Virus record (IMG/VR): IMGVR_UViG_3300029906_000187
Location: 537-64,536 of that record
Length of the DNA stretch: 64,000 nucleotides
Strand: one strand, 5' to 3'
DNA from: a virus
Numbering within the stretch: position 1 is the stretch's first letter; each line of letters starts with the position of its first letter. Below are positions 43,297 through 50,067 of the stretch, in pieces. Below the pieces are notes generated by a model. That model saw only the letters and a list, made by a program, of their open reading frames with translations, was not told the DNA's origin and ran no database searches. The position numbers and the translations under genes are program-made.

Positions 43297-43833
43297 TCAG
43301 TCCTCCTTCCCTTCCAGATATTCTTCGCAAAGCCCATCAAACGAGGTTTTACTTCCGCCGTCTGTGTCCCATCGCGCCCACAGTTCCAGAAACACCGTAT
43401 AATCGTTGGAGTTCTTCACCATCAGATCTTCTGTTTTCAGCGCAAGCGGCAACAGATTGGCTTGATTGGCTGCGTTGCGAAATGACATCAGTGCTTCCTG
43501 TATGTGGTCAAACACTCGAATCAGTAAGGTAAATACACCGTCGATATCCGAAACCTCATCCTCCAGCGCAAGCTCCTCCACTGTCGGATAAAGCTGCATC
43601 AGATGGCGCTGGTGCAGAACATCGCCAAATTCATCGAGATACTCCAGTTGCTTATGCGCATTCTCGTGAATGAGACGGGAAAGATTCGGCATCCCCTGCA
43701 CGATATATACATATTCCTTGAGTTGGTCCAACCACTTGTTCCCTTCTCCGTATGCGCGACTGACCGCACGGGAAGGCTCGTGCAACAGGTTGTAAGGCGG
43801 GGACATGTAGTTATAAATATCCTTGATTCGCAT
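43297..43833 (-). CDS. Ferritin-like four-helix protein
   Basis: IHENAHKQLEYLDEFGDVLHQRH; acidic and helical. Confidence 0.5.
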   Translation of the reverse strand: MRIKDIYNYMSPPYNLLHEPSRAVSRAYGEGNKWLDQLKEYVYIVQGMPNLSRLIHENAHKQLEYLDEFGDVLHQRHLMQLYPTVEELALEDEVSDIDGVFTLLIRVFDHIQEALMSFRNAANQANLLPLALKTEDLMVKNSNDYTVFLELWARWDTDGGSKTSFDGLCEEYLEGKED

Positions 43834-44319
43834 TTAGTCTCCTTTCTCCGGCGGAACCGGGAATGTCACATCGTATGGGAAGCCCTCTTGCTGTGGGATG
43901 TCACGGAGGGCTTGGCGGTATTTCGCCATGGGGCCAAAGACGGCGGATGCAATGGTTTTCAAAAAGCCGATCCATGCGGTAAATGTGGAGCCTTCCGGGG
44001 ATGTTATCCCCAGCCGGTCAAGGCACATCTCCTTGTCCGTTTCTGCCAGCAGCGCGTCGCGCTTGGCACGTACCTCCGCGGCCAGTCTGGCATATTCTGC
44101 ATTTCTGGCCGATGTCATCCACGCATCCAGTGTTTTCTGTACATTTTCCAGCAGGTTATCCCGATACGGTACCGGCATCCGGTATTCGTCGTACTGGTAC
44201 ATTGTCGCGCCCTCCCGCGTTTCCTCTGTGATGTTCTCCCGCAGGATTACTTCCGCGATCCCGTTTGCGGCAATCTCGATTTCCGCCGCCTCCGGTCTGA
44301 TGTTGCTTTCTGTCCTCAT
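43834..44319 (-). CDS. Fibre assembly chaperone-like protein
   Basis: VRAKRDALLAETD...YRQALRDIPQQEGFPYDVTFP. Confidence 0.75.
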   Translation of the reverse strand: MRTESNIRPEAAEIEIAANGIAEVILRENITEETREGATMYQYDEYRMPVPYRDNLLENVQKTLDAWMTSARNAEYARLAAEVRAKRDALLAETDKEMCLDRLGITSPEGSTFTAWIGFLKTIASAVFGPMAKYRQALRDIPQQEGFPYDVTFPVPPEKGD

Positions 44320-45343
44320 TTCTGATTGCCTCCTTCAGCTTTTTGATATTGATGTATGGCCTGATATATTTGGCATAATATTTGCGCGAATCGCTGTGAC
44401 GAATCCAGCCGAGATAAGACAGGACGGCACGTGCGTCCCGCACCGGAATGGTTTTCTTCTTCCGCATTTTGGAGATTCGCCGCCGGATGCGGAGCGCGTT
44501 TTTTCTCCGCAATGTCGTTTTGTTTCTGTAAAAGCGGAAGCCGAGCATATCGACCGGACGGGAATCCACCCGGAACACCTGCCAGTTTTCTTTCAGTGTC
44601 AGAGAAAGCGGCGCGATATATTCCGCGATCTGCCGGCGCACCCGGTGCAATTCCTTTTTATTGCGTCCGAACAGCACCATGTCATCCATATACCGCAGAT
44701 AATATTTGACGTGCAGCTTTTCCTTGATATAGTGATCCAGTCCCTCCAGATAGAAATTTGCCCACCACTGCGAGGTGTAATTTCCGATTGGAAGTCCTTG
44801 GCGATGACTGTCGATAATGACGTCGATCAGCCAAAGCACGTCTGCATCCTTGATTTTTCTGCGAAACACTGTTTTCAGTACATCCTGATTGATCGATGGA
44901 TAATATTTTTTTATGTCCAGCTTCAGGCAGTACTTTGTGTTTTTGCGGTCTCTGCGCATCCATCGCTCGATATACCGTTTCCCGTAACCGATTCCGCGGC
45001 CGGGAATGCTGCCGCAGCAGAATACGTACATGCCGCGTTGGAGCACCGTCTGCGTGACTTGTATCAGCGCCCAGTGGATAATCTGATCCGGGTAAAACGC
45101 CGGGCAGAAGATTGTCCGCTCCTTCTGCGTCGCTCCGTCTTTGATAACAAATGTTCGGTATGGCTTCGGTCGGTATTGCTTTGTCACCAGCATACCCCGT
45201 ATTGCTTCCGCGGCTTCCTGCTTATGCTCCATCACGTTGCACACGACGCGCCGATGTTTCTTTCCTTTCGCAGCATTTTCGATTGCCCGGAATATATTAT
45301 CAAGGTCGCAAATCTTTTCAAACAGATGGCCTTCCCGTTTCAT
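44156..45343 (-). CDS. DGR reverse transcriptase
   Basis: KGK, K.R.I, LKLDIKKYYPSI, GLPIGNYTSQWWAN (DGR-type SQ), YLRYMDD; 3' end overlaps the next gene. Confidence 0.95.
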   Translation of the reverse strand: MKREGHLFEKICDLDNIFRAIENAAKGKKHRRVVCNVMEHKQEAAEAIRGMLVTKQYRPKPYRTFVIKDGATQKERTIFCPAFYPDQIIHWALIQVTQTVLQRGMYVFCCGSIPGRGIGYGKRYIERWMRRDRKNTKYCLKLDIKKYYPSINQDVLKTVFRRKIKDADVLWLIDVIIDSHRQGLPIGNYTSQWWANFYLEGLDHYIKEKLHVKYYLRYMDDMVLFGRNKKELHRVRRQIAEYIAPLSLTLKENWQVFRVDSRPVDMLGFRFYRNKTTLRRKNALRIRRRISKMRKKKTIPVRDARAVLSYLGWIRHSDSRKYYAKYIRPYINIKKLKEAIRNEDRKQHQTGGGGNRDCRKRDRGSNPAGEHHRGNAGGRDNVPVRRIPDAGTVSG

Positions 45344-45460
45344 GTTTCCTTCTTTCTTATATCTTCAGGGTTTTCAATGATTTACTTGCCCCGACCGTAG
45401 CGATTGATTTTTGCCAAGCGGCAAGGAATACAGCGTGCAAGGGAAATTTGACAGGCAATA

Positions 45461-45576
45461 TAAGATAGACGCGCGCGGTTGTTGACGCTCGTACTCGACG
45501 GGGCGTTGTTGCAATTCCAGTAACATGGCCCGGCGTTCGAGCCATTGTTCCAGTTGCCGCCGACCTGCGCCGCGCG
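45461..45576 (-). repeat. DGR template repeat (TR)
   Basis: AAC/AAT-rich 116-bp copy of the target 3' end, upstream of RT. Confidence 0.95.
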
Positions 45577-45632
45577 CTCTGCACGCCGTACCCCCAAAGT
45601 ATAAGGGAAACAGTTTTCCTGCATTTGGTTTT

Positions 45633-45750
45633 ATATAAGAAAGACGCGCGCGGGCAGTGACGCCACCCACCGACGGGGCGTCATAGCAATGCCAGTAACA
45701 CGGCCCGGCGTACGAGCCGCTGCCCCAGCCGCCGCCGACCCGCGCCGCGC
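45633..45750 (-). repeat. Extra, intergenic VR-like copy (VR2)
   Basis: Versus TR: 18 mismatches at TR adenines and 7 at non-A positions (hand alignment). Confidence 0.9.
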
Positions 45751-45774
45751 TCACGCTGTATCCCTGTTGTTTTC

Positions 45775-45791
45775 GGGGGCTGACCGCCCCC
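45775..45791 (-). promoter_or_regulatory. DGR cis-acting hairpin after the target stop
   Basis: GGGGGC-N5-GCCCCC, about 10 bp after TAA. Confidence 0.8.
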
Positions 45792-45801
45792 AAACCCCCG
45801 T

Positions 45802-48057
45802 TTATGTACGGTGGTAAGAAAGACGCGCGCGGTAGCTGACGCCCGTACTCGACGGGGCGCCGTAGCAACCCCAGTAACAAGGCCCGGCGTACGAGCCATA
45901 GGTCCAGCTGCCGCCGACCAGCGCCGCGCGAACTGCGTAGCGCGGGTAATAGTAATAATCACTGTAATACGTTGTCGAGCCCGCGCCGATCTCCGATGTA
46001 ATGCGTACCCAAGGATACCGACTGTCAATACCGAGCTTTTTGGCATACCCATCCTGTGACGGAATATTGTACTGCAGCGCGACATAATCCTCTGTGATCG
46101 TCCCGTTTGCGTACTTTGTCGGATCGGGCAGATAATACGGGGTATACGTGTACGGGCTGTCGTCCGTGCCTTCTCCCGCGCGCTGTATCAGTATGTCGGA
46201 AATATAATTGAATACATTGCCATACGGAGATTCTTTTCCTCTGTATACGCAATTGTATTTGCCGCTTGTGTTCGACGTTGGTGACCCGCTTGACGCAATC
46301 ACGCTGTTGCAGGTGCCGTTGACATATCCGGCAGTCCATACAATATTGCCGACCGCGATGTCCACCGCCGCTCCGTCAAAGGCGATCGCCGAGTTGCTGT
46401 CGTCATATGCCGTAATGGCGGTAACAATCCGGTTTTCCGCGATCTGCGACCCTCCGAGCGATGTGCCGATACAGATGGTCTGACCGACGACATAATCAGC
46501 AGCCGTCGCTGTGGATACGATGATCTGATTGGTATCCGTTCCGGCAACGGTCGCGGTATCGCTGGCGCTGTACGGCAAACTGGTTGCACCCTTCATAACG
46601 GTCTGCACATCCCGTGTGGCAAACTCAACCCACATATACAGGCACTCGGTATACTGCTCGGCGCAGGTTGTCACAATATAGGCGTCTCCGGCTTTTTTGG
46701 CATCCGTCATCGCGCTATTAAGCGAATATATGTTGGGGAATACGCCCGTGCGGGATGTGGGTTTAGCGTCAACCAGTGCCATTGGGTAAGCCGCGGTATA
46801 AGCCTTCTGATACGGCGCGTCCTGACCTCCGTTTTTCAGAAAGATCGGTGCGGGGGAGTATCCGGCCAGAGGCGTTGCCGAGATGGCGATCTCCTCCGCG
46901 TCTCCGTCGTAAATATGACGGTAATAAAACAGGGAGTGCTCCACCCATACCTCTCCATTTGAACCATCTTCCACATATCCCGGTTCGCCTTTGTATGCGT
47001 TCACGACAAAGTTTCCGGATTCGTCCCAATACCCGCAGCAGCGACGGCGGGCAGACCACGGGTAAATACTGTCAAAGTCGTTCTGCGGGGCTTCCGTGTC
47101 CGTTCCGACGCCCGCGACCAGTCCGACGGCATTGTACAGGCGTGTCACGGTCGCGCCGCTATTTGCAGAGCCTTCAAAGCGCACGCCGTATCTCTCTCCC
47201 GGTCGATTTTGGTAGGTAATGCTCATCGGCACCGCTTGACCGTAGGCATTGACCGCTGTGACCGTTGTAGCGCCGTCCACATTGATCAGGTTGTCATCCG
47301 ACAGAAGGTCGGACAAATCCGTTTCCACCGCCTCGGGAAGCACATAGACCACGGTAACCGGTGTTCCGCTTGCATTCTGCTCCGCAAGATATGTTTTCCA
47401 TGCATCCACTGTTTCCCATGCCGTCTTGGACACACCGAAATCCAGCGCGTAACCGGCGCCGGGGGTCGTGTCTCCGCTGTACAGCGCGTTCTCTTCCGCA
47501 TGATATGCGCTCCCGGAATCATACGCAAAATGGCTGCACAGCTTGGCCTTGAGTGGATTGCACTTCATATTCAAAATCACATATCTGGTGAAATCGGTGA
47601 TCGATGGGTCAATGCCGCCCACGCTCCAGCTTTCGGTACCGTCCAAAACGATTCTCTTTACGATCTGCTGATAGGTCTTGGTTTCGGTAGAAACATCCCA
47701 AGTCACCAGATTGGAATCCGTTTGGCTGATGCCGTCTCCATAGCTGTCAAGCGCACGCACACCAGACGGAATTGCAAGTGTATTTCCATCTTTGGTGGAA
47801 TTGCTTTGCACCGCTGTCACTGCGGATGCCTGCAAGGTCAATGCATCCTCATTTTTGTACGTCATCCCGCCGATGGAAGTCACCTCGGCGTAGGGGAGCA
47901 CCCCTCCGGGAACCGTTGCGGCATAGGCAACACCCGTATCGGTCTGTGCAGTGACGTTCTGCTGCAGATTTGCAATCAGCTTGTTGTTCCGCTTCGCCAG
48001 CGCTCCTTTGATTTGATAATCCTTGGCTTTTAACCGAATATCGTTAATCTCTGACAT
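45802..48057 (-). CDS. DGR target protein (fibre/adhesin with C-type-lectin-like C-terminus)
   Basis: Ends RAALVGGSWTYGSYAGPCYWGCYGAPSSTGVSYRARLSYHRT. Confidence 0.9.
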   Translation of the reverse strand: MSEINDIRLKAKDYQIKGALAKRNNKLIANLQQNVTAQTDTGVAYAATVPGGVLPYAEVTSIGGMTYKNEDALTLQASAVTAVQSNSTKDGNTLAIPSGVRALDSYGDGISQTDSNLVTWDVSTETKTYQQIVKRIVLDGTESWSVGGIDPSITDFTRYVILNMKCNPLKAKLCSHFAYDSGSAYHAEENALYSGDTTPGAGYALDFGVSKTAWETVDAWKTYLAEQNASGTPVTVVYVLPEAVETDLSDLLSDDNLINVDGATTVTAVNAYGQAVPMSITYQNRPGERYGVRFEGSANSGATVTRLYNAVGLVAGVGTDTEAPQNDFDSIYPWSARRRCCGYWDESGNFVVNAYKGEPGYVEDGSNGEVWVEHSLFYYRHIYDGDAEEIAISATPLAGYSPAPIFLKNGGQDAPYQKAYTAAYPMALVDAKPTSRTGVFPNIYSLNSAMTDAKKAGDAYIVTTCAEQYTECLYMWVEFATRDVQTVMKGATSLPYSASDTATVAGTDTNQIIVSTATAADYVVGQTICIGTSLGGSQIAENRIVTAITAYDDSNSAIAFDGAAVDIAVGNIVWTAGYVNGTCNSVIASSGSPTSNTSGKYNCVYRGKESPYGNVFNYISDILIQRAGEGTDDSPYTYTPYYLPDPTKYANGTITEDYVALQYNIPSQDGYAKKLGIDSRYPWVRITSEIGAGSTTYYSDYYYYPRYAVRAALVGGSWTYGSYAGPCYWGCYGAPSSTGVSYRARLSYHRT
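45815..45930 (-). repeat. DGR variable repeat (VR1)
   Basis: 15 mismatches to TR over 116 bp, all at TR adenines. Confidence 0.97.
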
Positions 48058-48072
48058 GTCATTCCTCCTTTA

Positions 48073-50067
48073 TCAAAGTATCAGCGTGGTTCCCACGACG
48101 CGAATGCGCGGGGGCTTCAGACGAGGGTGAACGGAACAGAACCACCCAGAGGATGCTTCATTGTAGTTCCAGATATTGTATAACACCCCAACATTCAAGC
48201 CTTCACTCGCTCTTCCGCCGCGAAAGAGGATGGTATTATAAGCGTTTTGACTGTTGCTAAAATAGTCCCCTACTGGGTTGGTACTGGTACCACCGATAGC
48301 CGTACAAAATGGCGGTATGGACAGTGAACCGGAATAAGATAACATACCCAAAGTTTGAATAAAACCACCCGTGGTAGGCAACACAAGCCCAGTATCCAGA
48401 TGCGCAGATGTGTCGAGCGCATCGTACTCGTCGGCTTGTTCATCACTGGCAGCAATCCAAATATGTTGGTCCGTGCCATTCTTATATGCGCCAAGTGTGT
48501 ACAACCACATGTTGCCATACAGCACCATGCCACGGTAATATGCGTTACATTTGCCGTTTGTGCCGATGTACCCGGACTTGCTGCCGATGGAAGCATCTGC
48601 TTGGTTGGTAAGCCCGTGTACAGACCAGTAATTGTCCGTAGTAACGGTCACCGAGGCGTTCAGCGTTACATCCAAATAGGTCGGATCACTGCCTGCCTGC
48701 GCGGAAACAACGTAATAAGAGCCAACCTGATTGCCTCCGTCCGATGTTCCGATGTCAAAGATGGCTCCGGGGATGCACGAATTTGTTCCGGCGGATGCCA
48801 GCACTTTCACCACTGTGCTGTTGGTTGCCGCTTCCGCAATCTGGTCGCTTGACTGGCGGTACAGATTGGATACACCGTTTCCAATCGCACTTTGACTGTT
48901 CATGGTTGCATACTCAACCACAAACAAGAGCGTATCCGCATCGATGGAATAGATGCTGTCCAGCGTCGCACCGTAGTTCTTGGCGTAGGTGTGCAGTGTG
49001 CTCAACGGAGTACGCACCGCCGGAATACCCGTTAAAGGCAGTAAGCAGGTGGTCGGCTCCCCGTTGATGGTCTTGCTGACTGCCCTGCCGTGCCACCGTC
49101 CACCGATGGATTCCGGGTAGTGCACATAACCGCCTACCGGCTTGTCCGTCACGTCGAAGTACCGATACGTGCCGTCGTCCCAGCTCTTGCCCCAGAATTC
49201 AGGTCGATACCGCCATACGCCGTTCGTGTGCGTATACGAAAAGCTGTCGTCTCCCTCCCACGCCACCACGCAGTCGGTCAGGCTTTGGTCGGACGAAAGG
49301 TATTGATATTTATCCAAGTCGATGTTGCACAGCCGGATACCCGACCACGGATAGATGTTGTCAAACGGATTCTCATAGCTGGCGTTCACCGAGCCGAAGT
49401 ATCCGAAATTCTCCGTGTTTGTCGTGATTCCCGCCGCGCTTCCCATCCGCGTCAGTTGCGCCAAGCTCTTGTCCCACCGGGCGGTGTAATGGTATTGATT
49501 GACAATCGGATTGAATGCGTACACATCAAACGAATCCGAGCTGCCGTCACTTTTCTGAACGGTGATCGGCGTGACCGTATACCCATTCTCCTGCTGGGCG
49601 CTGCCGCTTGTGACGCTGGAAATACTCACTCCATTCTTTGCGGATATGTCAAAGGTCTGTTCGGTTCCGTCCGAAACCGAAACCGTAATGGTGGTTGTCG
49701 TGTATCCGTTATCCTCTTGCGGCTCTCCAGCCGTGATAGAGGAAATGGTGACACCGTTTTTCACAGATATTGTAAATTGCTGCTGTGTCCCATCCAACAG
49801 CGAAACCGTAATGATGGTTTTGCTGTAATCTCCGTCAATGGTTGGCGTTCCCGCTGTGATCTGTGTAATAAGTGCGCCATCCAAGAGCTTCTGCCAATAT
49901 GATTCCGAGGATGTGCCCGGCGTGATATTGGCCGGTACATCTACACGCGCCACATAACTGGAGCCATTGTAATACACAACGTTGAGTTGGTTATAGGTAG
50001 CCGAACTGTTCCAGTTTCCCTTTCCTACAAACCCCACAACACCAATTGTCTGGGTGATACCTGCCAT
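48073..50067 (-). CDS. Fibre/adhesin paralogous to the DGR target; N-terminal CBM-like motif and three ~39-aa repeats
   Basis: KGNWNSSATY...YNGSSYVA...YWQ; 3x (T/S)I..IT.G.....Y..T.ITV...DG....F; shares FD.IYPWS, VE(F/Y)AT, YRG...YGN with 45802-48057. Confidence 0.8.
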   Translation of the reverse strand: MAGITQTIGVVGFVGKGNWNSSATYNQLNVVYYNGSSYVARVDVPANITPGTSSESYWQKLLDGALITQITAGTPTIDGDYSKTIITVSLLDGTQQQFTISVKNGVTISSITAGEPQEDNGYTTTTITVSVSDGTEQTFDISAKNGVSISSVTSGSAQQENGYTVTPITVQKSDGSSDSFDVYAFNPIVNQYHYTARWDKSLAQLTRMGSAAGITTNTENFGYFGSVNASYENPFDNIYPWSGIRLCNIDLDKYQYLSSDQSLTDCVVAWEGDDSFSYTHTNGVWRYRPEFWGKSWDDGTYRYFDVTDKPVGGYVHYPESIGGRWHGRAVSKTINGEPTTCLLPLTGIPAVRTPLSTLHTYAKNYGATLDSIYSIDADTLLFVVEYATMNSQSAIGNGVSNLYRQSSDQIAEAATNSTVVKVLASAGTNSCIPGAIFDIGTSDGGNQVGSYYVVSAQAGSDPTYLDVTLNASVTVTTDNYWSVHGLTNQADASIGSKSGYIGTNGKCNAYYRGMVLYGNMWLYTLGAYKNGTDQHIWIAASDEQADEYDALDTSAHLDTGLVLPTTGGFIQTLGMLSYSGSLSIPPFCTAIGGTSTNPVGDYFSNSQNAYNTILFRGGRASEGLNVGVLYNIWNYNEASSGWFCSVHPRLKPPRIRVVGTTLIL

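Follow-up and report, generated by a model that had tools for sequence, protein, structure and literature searches.

Diversity-generating retroelements (DGRs) are commonly taken to diversify their targets from a single fixed template, all variants sharing the non-adenine scaffold of that template. In BPP-1, the variable repeat (VR) of mtd is followed by avd, the template repeat (TR), a spacer RNA, and the reverse transcriptase (RT) gene brt, and a hairpin boosts homing more than 1,000-fold (Guo et al. 2011, PMC3240598). The avd-less architecture A (target-TR-RT) accounts for 29% of DGRs, and about 15% of DGRs have several VRs or target genes (Wu et al. 2018, PMC5758913); the same survey describes multiple targets and remote VRs but not noncoding, tandem VR/TR-like cassettes between VR and TR. 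Arrays of start-less cassettes adjacent to one expression site, with donors that remain unchanged, are known from Borrelia (vlsE/vls) and Neisseria (pilE/pilS). Here, we analyzed a DGR in a 64,000-nt window (positions 537 to 64,536) of the 65.5-kb IMG/VR phage record IMGVR_UViG_3300029906_000187, which is rated complete; the phage was located in chicken-gut metagenomes of 8 studies. An earlier reading of the window (here, the original prediction) had noted an orphan repeat, VR2, between the variable repeat of the target gene (VR1) and TR. Our analysis makes it likely that VR2 is a real, noncoding, frozen spare cassette in a short tandem array of polymorphic copy number, and in sister phages the sequence of its two parent cassettes, A and B, has demonstrably been copied, whole or in segments, into the expressed VR1.

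All parts of the DGR lie on the minus strand, in the order target, VR1, hairpin, VR2, TR, spacer, RT, and chaperone (Table 1). As in BPP-1, the RT lies beside TR (PF00078 and phrog_1423 matches; 117 nt separate the end of TR from the RT start), adenine differences fall at the 3′ end of a tail fiber gene, the GC-rich repeat ends (initiation of mutagenic homing [IMH] in the recipient and IMH* in the donor) differ between VR and TR, and a GC hairpin lies past VR. The window differs from BPP-1 in that avd is absent, a single T/A distinguishes IMH from IMH*, and one (elsewhere two) extra noncoding VR-like cassettes stand between VR and TR. Its gene order, lack of an accessory gene, and phage tail target with a lectin-like variable C terminus are those of architecture A. 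A repeat search found one direct-repeat family in three copies (45461 to 45582, 45636 to 45757, and 45815 to 45936; spacing of 175 and 179 nt), and BLAST of the entire 65.5-kb record returned these three only (E = 2.7 × 10−81, 4.7 × 10−37, and 5.2 × 10−25), values that place the family far beyond chance. The predicted three-repeat structure was confirmed as the 117-nt repeats VR1, VR2, and TR at these spacings. VR2, predicted at 45633 to 45750, was found within a few bases of that position (45636 to 45752), and the gap between target stop and TR, given as ~225 bp, measured 219 to 224 nt, depending on the 5′ boundary chosen for TR.

Over the 117-nt core, VR1 differed from TR at 15 adenines and at one other position, at the 5′ border, whereas VR2 differed at 18 adenines and 8 other positions (7 without the border base, as originally counted). 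VR1 therefore mismatches TR almost only at TR adenines, as expected of a DGR, and VR2 does not. Both VR1 and VR2 carry the VR-type end CTTTCTTA, again as predicted, and TR ends in CTATCTTA; a recipient IMH followed by a hairpin is thus present at VR1 and a donor IMH* at TR. By analogy with BPP-1, the GC hairpin after VR1, which is kept after the target stop in all close relatives (alignment), is likely the recognition element of the homing target. VR2 has an IMH-type end without a significant hairpin downstream (z of −0.5, versus −3.1 after VR1), which explains why this repeat is not rewritten despite its VR-type end. In multi-VR DGRs (Legionella and Treponema), several VR-like repeats likewise match one TR; however, those VRs lie within genes and differ at adenines only, whereas VR2 belongs to no gene, has 7 to 8 non-adenine differences, and is undiversified.

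We collected sister loci by searching for exact matches to the RT protein and to seven variants from its cluster, which gave 38 loci (L084 to L121) from ENA, Logan, and NCBI assemblies; the same DGR was defined as an RT cluster at ≥90% identity. Eighteen complete arrays consisted of four cassettes, VR1-A-B-TR, whose cores ended 630, 451, 292, and 117 nt ahead of the RT start, and the window, L085, and L090 had three repeats, with core ends at 471, 292, and 117 nt. In these three, positions 1 to 44 of the middle cassette were those of A and positions 62 to 117 those of B. The window VR2 is thus an A-5′/B-3′ recombinant from which one 159-nt unit was deleted, with the crossover in a shared 17-nt stretch. 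The additional 159 nt were present in contigs from runs X11 and X15 as well. Independent A × B deletions with other crossover points were observed in L101, L112/113, and L114; L115 had lost B, and L103 carried a patch of B within A. These different cassette states among sisters indicate that the window VR2 derived from two older cassettes and that the array is dynamic. A scan of IMG/VR (own record excluded) for the exact pattern of the VR2-TR spacer returned 0 hits.

The cassettes were far less variable than VR1, for which 23 contigs yielded 17 alleles (17 differences on average). Fourteen of these alleles were adenine-only variants of their own TR allele, with at most one internal non-adenine difference. 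TR itself had three alleles, 1 to 2 substitutions apart, in the 38 contigs (leaving out a VR1/TR fusion in L086), distinguished by T34C plus G90A and by C91T (cores of L095 to L103, L112 to L116, and L118 to L121). At non-adenine positions, VR1 alleles agreed with their own TR allele, an internal control indicating that the resident TR templates VR1. A and B, in contrast, carried only few lineage-specific point substitutions (21 to 31 contigs, hybrids included), and two changes in the B part of VR2 in run X15 both fell at non-adenine TR positions. VR2 thus lacked the variation at template adenines among close genomes that marks an active VR. The non-adenine differences of A and B coincided with AAT/AAC in the TRs of relatives and with C34 in the second TR allele, which fits templating by older TR versions; this supports the proposal of VR2 as a relic VR with an older TR allele as its template and answers, in related phages, the search for TR alleles that would account for the non-adenine sites.

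Four loci carried cassette sequence in the expression site. VR1 of L089 was identical to A but for 3 border bases and included all of A's non-adenine differences from TR, and VR1 of L084 and L087 matched A apart from two additional changes; the L084 contig was assembled by MEGAHIT at k141, so that single 141-mers cover the full repeat with its flanks. VR1 of L105 (45× coverage) followed B over positions ~23 to 70 and A over 83 to 98, with 10 non-adenine differences from its own TR. Both A and B were intact downstream in all four loci, and the A/B-type VR1s agreed with A and B as they occur in their own lineage rather than with A′ or B′. This match, together with a mosaic that cannot be derived from one ancestral VR1, favors the direction from cassette to VR1. 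The adenines in the transferred tracts were nearly all unchanged (0/8, 1/8, and 0/11 altered), which favors homologous recombination, and we give recombination between the direct repeats a little better than an even chance of being the route of transfer. As in vls and pilS, one expression site stands beside homologous cassettes (VR1-(A)-(B)-TR) that have no start or consistent frame (by eye, four-cassette alignment), and the content of parents A and B appears in that site with the donors unchanged. The window family differs from vls and pilS in its tiny array (1 to 2 cassettes; ≤10 in relatives), in residing in a phage beside a retroelement whose mutagenesis rewrites that very site, and in having cassettes that derive from the template unit of that retroelement.

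The flanks of VR2 point to its origin. Its 5′ flank, AGGGATACAGCGTG, is the motif that precedes TR in all close relatives, and its 3′ flank (TATA..CAAAT..TTTCCCTT) approximates a copy of the first ~30 nt of the 3′ flank of TR. With TR-type flanks on both sides, VR2 appears to have been copied from the TR unit rather than from the end of the target. The motif upstream of TR forms the 5′ half of a stem whose partner lies ~20 nt 3′ of TR. Across 49 loci, the two halves covary (cognate duplex, −21.2 kcal/mol; noncognate, −16.5 kcal/mol), with clear compensatory changes in L007, L011, L040, and L077. The 5′ half-stem of VR2 is able to pair with the only 3′ half-stem (−24.4 kcal/mol), compared to −28.4 kcal/mol for TR's own copy. 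Judged from these sequences, the cassettes appear to be tandem duplicates of the TR unit (5′ half-stem, core, and short AT-rich tail). The original prediction had also offered an ectopic cDNA insertion that displaced avd; the TR-type flanks, including the one 3′ of the core, speak against it, as does the finding that avd was never here. An unequal crossover between VR1 and TR as the direct origin of VR2 was rejected, since it predicts a hairpin after VR2, which is absent.

This long-range, covarying stem has the form GGGRN8GC ... GCN8YTCC (window positions 45578 to 45595 with 45425 to 45443; TR flanks of L005 to L083). Throughout the arrays, every cassette retained the 5′ half-stem, and a single 3′ half lay past the last cassette. 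The longer window RNA, folded at minimum energy, had the half-stem of VR2 paired instead of TR's own. The duplicated 5′ half-stems might pair alternatively with the one 3′ half-stem and so select which cassette is presented to the RT.

The original prediction placed VR2 where avd should be. Its observation that no avd lies between target stop and TR was correct: the gap contained no open reading frame (ORF) with a family match, and the profile search it had called for found no match to Avd (PF05635) in the 65.5-kb genome at E values up to 1. The small neighbors P0003 and P0004, a tail fiber chaperone and an acidic protein without a family match, are not Avd-like. However, a search of IMG/VR with the RT, which gave 80 loci, showed that the position was never that of avd. 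In the nine closest relatives (63 to 74% RT identity), the order was target-VR, conserved hairpin, 10 to 20 AT-rich nt, the motif AGGGGTACRGCGTGCAA, TR, conserved spacer, and RT, with a VR-to-TR spacing of 173 to 205 nt and no intervening gene. TR began 173 to 260 nt past VR, with no space for a gene, in all nine and in nearly all of the ~70 RT relatives with enough upstream DNA, so that the proposed check for avd at this position in related phages came back negative. The norm of the clade has TR ~60 nt past the hairpin of the target; relative to the nine closest relatives, which lack the entire unit, the window has one additional unit of ~177 nt. The Avd accessory protein, missing from this locus, is dispensable for DGR membership, since architecture A has no accessory genes (PMC5758913). 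Given the avd-less order of the relatives and this known architecture, VR2 is no replacement of avd.

Arrays were also found in more distant relatives. Tandem Repeats Finder missed most of them, the copies being too diverged (only L060 scored), and an nhmmer profile with anchor motifs was used instead. Fifteen of the 80 RT relatives had ≥3 cassettes, and the anchor-based maximum was 11 in L024 (one VR plus 10 silent). At ~55% RT identity, relatives carried 5 to 11 tandem cassettes of equal length (104 to 107 nt) between target and RT; in complete phage genomes all cassettes lay in one array, with no remote VRs. Adenine-rich and adenine-poor cassettes were mixed, and silent cassettes with a VR-type 3′ end were always adenine-poor (≤16%). 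The cognate template of the VR, recognized by adenine-only differences, was often an internal cassette: cassette 7 of 8 in L027 and L028 (11 adenine changes, 0 others), 3 of 5 in L060, and 3 of 4 in L053. The sole difference between L027 and L028 was in the VR, at three template-adenine sites. The VR of L051 was a mosaic of two silent cassettes, and that of L018 was cassette 2, whereas its sister L019 uses cassette 6; sister strains also varied in cassette number. Multiple-template features are seen in L027/28, L060, and L053 as adenine-only internal templates; the extra cassettes of the window family have TR flanks but are adenine-poor (11% A), and their transfers show no adenine mutagenesis. 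Our literature search found no description of tandem, orphan, or multiple TRs, or of silent cassettes, in DGRs, and we could not find a stored-allele layer described for these elements.

Two other accounts of the cassettes deserve weight. The RT might use VR2, A, and B as a second, adenine-poor template, whose cDNA would rewrite VR1 with a near-fixed sequence (a "null" or memory template). Internal cassettes are indeed cognate to the VR in L027, L028, L060, and L053, the VR2 half-stem pairs with the 3′ half-stem nearly as well as that of TR, and VR1 of L084 and L087 shows one A-to-G change at a cassette adenine. We nevertheless regard this account as unlikely, because no cassette adenine was changed in L089 (0/8) or L105 (0/11), the cassettes end 3′ in VR-type rather than TR-type sequence and have no downstream spacer copy of their own, and 14/17 VR1 alleles derive plainly from the RT-proximal TR. 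Alternatively, VR2, A, and B could be decaying by-products of slippage or unequal crossing-over with no flow into VR1, the A-type VR1 reflecting either an old VR1 that was once copied into a cassette and then not rewritten or chimeric contigs. That the cassettes are invariant, untranslated, and repeatedly deleted would fit such inert relics, as would the close relatives (63 to 74% RT identity) that function without them and the presence of cassette content in only 3/17 VR1 alleles. We think this quite improbable in view of L105, whose B-5′/A-3′ VR1 has both donors intact downstream and cannot come from a single ancestral VR1. Chimeric assembly fits poorly with shared stretches of 10 to 22 nt at the junctions, shorter than the k of the assemblers (k141 for L084), and A-type VR1 matches the lineage-specific A, not A′. 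Moreover, arrays of up to 11 cassettes arose or persist in several sub-lineages.

Coding and assembly explanations fared worse. VR2 could be translated, from a GTG at 45754 or by a −1 frameshift, into an alternative fiber tip or a small protein. The predicted frame, shifted relative to the target because 179 = 3 × 59 + 2, does exist with its quoted peptide and is open from 45880 to 45374; AGGGA-N6-GTG precedes VR2 (AGGGA at 45765 to 45761 and GTG at 45754 to 45752, as noted originally), and the frame has a weak match to phrog_5302 (E = 0.0019). However, the apparent ribosome-binding site and start are a conserved RNA half-stem that also stands before the noncoding TR in every relative, so that neither the start nor a frameshift-accessible C terminus is supported. 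The frame continues through TR in the wrong register and yields nonsense there, and in the four-cassette alleles a TGA in the VR frame stands just upstream of cassette B (by eye). An open frame is expected of a G+C-rich copy of coding sequence, and the phrog match reflects the repeat. We therefore consider translation of VR2 highly improbable; the cassettes in general are probably not translated. That VR2 arose from mis-threaded VR variants is the explanation to which we give the least credence. Hypervariable repeats are difficult to assemble, and contigs of X3 and X5 break near the array; yet the flanks of VR2 are unique on both sides, and its parent cassettes occur in >20 independent assemblies. 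The same structure came from MEGAHIT k119 (L085) and from Logan (L090), so VR2 is no assembly artifact.

Several points weigh against reading VR2 as a frozen spare cassette in a donating array. The predicted silent archive that recombines into VR1 was borne out for the parents (A in L084, L087, and L089; a B/A mosaic in L105), but transfer was not seen for the window's own hybrid, which may donate in the same way; moreover, the three hybrid-bearing contigs share one VR1 allele and maybe a single source sample. Variation was compared among assembled contigs rather than within samples, and the runs that contain the stretch include 0 RNA runs. Reverse copying of an old VR1 into A would account for L084, L087, and L089, although less parsimoniously. 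At least four independent deletions indicate that the array is easily lost; it may be retained by selection as a store of earlier receptor-binding alleles or may only be tolerated. Finally, homing products without adenine changes are common in BPP-1 (7/12 mutated; PMC3240598), which keeps an RT route in play, and retrohoming of cassette-copied cDNA is in our view a possible, if doubtful, mode of transfer.

On the spare-cassette reading, the history of the locus could have run as follows. Tandem duplication of the TR unit would have given cassettes between VR and TR, which then would have lost the IMH* adenine and most other adenines, either by past mutagenic homing into the cassettes or by conversion from a former VR1. 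Recombination between A and B in their shared 17-nt stretch would have left the single A-5′/B-3′ hybrid in the window. Copying of cassette content into VR1, whole or segmental, would yield fiber-tip alleles beyond the coding of the current TR, since the donated sequences differ from it at non-adenine positions. We tentatively extend this to a two-tier system in the clade, in which adenine hypermutation is joined by 1 to 10 TR-unit cassettes, any of which could rewrite the single VR. The adenine-poor A, B, and VR2 would then be stored earlier receptor-binding tips, a heritable memory reinstated in one step by recombination or nonmutagenic retrohoming.

The silent cassettes add a second source of variation, namely, tail fiber tip alleles not encodable by the current template, in an array that expands, contracts, and recombines among sister phages. 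If the array is selected, host range evolution would have a memory, with return to earlier specificities beside random search, and surveys that demand adenine-only mismatches would systematically discard such cassettes. For DGR engineering, several templates per target might be usable. The locus is also a natural example of how donor, recipient, and bystander copies of one repeat are told apart by IMH, the hairpin past the recipient, and the stem that closes TR.

Table 1. Features of the DGR locus in the window and cassette arrays of distant relatives
Feature	Position	Strand	Basis
DGR target gene, 751-aa phage tail (fiber) protein	45802..48057	-	ORF list, translation; phrog_5302 "tail protein" E = 3.3e-34, phrog_17147 E = 2.4e-39
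VR1, expressed variable repeat, 117-nt core, end TCTTA, actively diversified	45815..45931	-	Changes versus TR; population alleles
GC hairpin, 6-bp stem plus 5-nt loop, directly 3′ of target stop	45775..45791	-	Alignment of relatives; DNA fold −13 kcal/mol, z −3.1
Copy of 5′ half of TR-closing stem (AGGGATACAGCGTG), upstream of VR2	45751..45765	-	Motif in relatives; duplex energy
VR2, silent hybrid cassette, likely frozen, adenine-poor (11% A)	45636..45752	-	Alignment with four-cassette alleles; difference strings; extra 159 nt in X11 and X15 contigs
VR2, A-derived part	45709..45752	-	Four-cassette alignment
VR2, crossover zone	45692..45708	-	Four-cassette alignment
VR2, B-derived part	45636..45691	-	Four-cassette alignment
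B-type 3′ spacer after VR2, starting TATA...CAAAT...TTTCCCTT like TR 3′ flank	45596..45635	-	No significant hairpin, fold z −0.5
5′ half of stem closing the template repeat RNA	45578..45595	-	Duplex with 45425-45443 at −28.4 kcal/mol; covariation in relatives
TR, template repeat, 26 adenines, end CTATCTTA = IMH*	45461..45577	-	Repeat search; three population alleles
3′ half of TR-closing stem, within conserved TR-RT spacer (45344-45460)	45425..45443	-	Duplex energy, covariation
DGR reverse transcriptase, 395 aa	44156..45343	-	PF00078 E = 6e-12; phrog_1423 E = 2.5e-116
Tail fiber assembly chaperone, 122 aa in calls of public assemblies	43834..44202	-	PF16778 E = 4e-14; gene calls L084-L121
Arrays in distant relatives	L024:2148-3859; L027:2572-3855; L019:411-1883; L050:216-1416; L060:3068-3876		

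In L086 (3200 to 4001), VR1 was joined directly to TR; the hairpin and the two silent cassettes were gone, as was TR as a template of its own, and a VR/TR hybrid carrying IMH* formed the end of the target. The DGR of L086 has probably inactivated itself through recombination, if the join is not a scaffold error.

A promoter and terminator scan of positions 45300 to 45950 gave nothing usable. The chaperone gene overlaps the 3′ end of the RT gene and travels with the DGR module. The C-terminal tail of the RT ORF (44156 to 44319) is of low complexity and basic, and it overlaps the chaperone start by 47 nt (122-aa call) or by up to 164 nt (longest ORF). In related DGRs, a small acidic ORF that overlaps the RT end might be the counterpart of "CH1," an acidic accessory gene in Wu et al. 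2018. Two phage backbones (L084, L087, L089, L095, L099, and L117 versus window positions 43300 to 50067) shared one DGR module, with the RT protein, TR, cassettes, and chaperone all identical. The targets of the two were 94% identical over the C-terminal 463 aa and had unrelated N termini (BppU_N versus none), and the downstream genes differed, with a 106-aa protein plus a holin in one and a 178-aa protein plus YonD_N in the other. This pattern points to a recent exchange of the DGR module between backbones.

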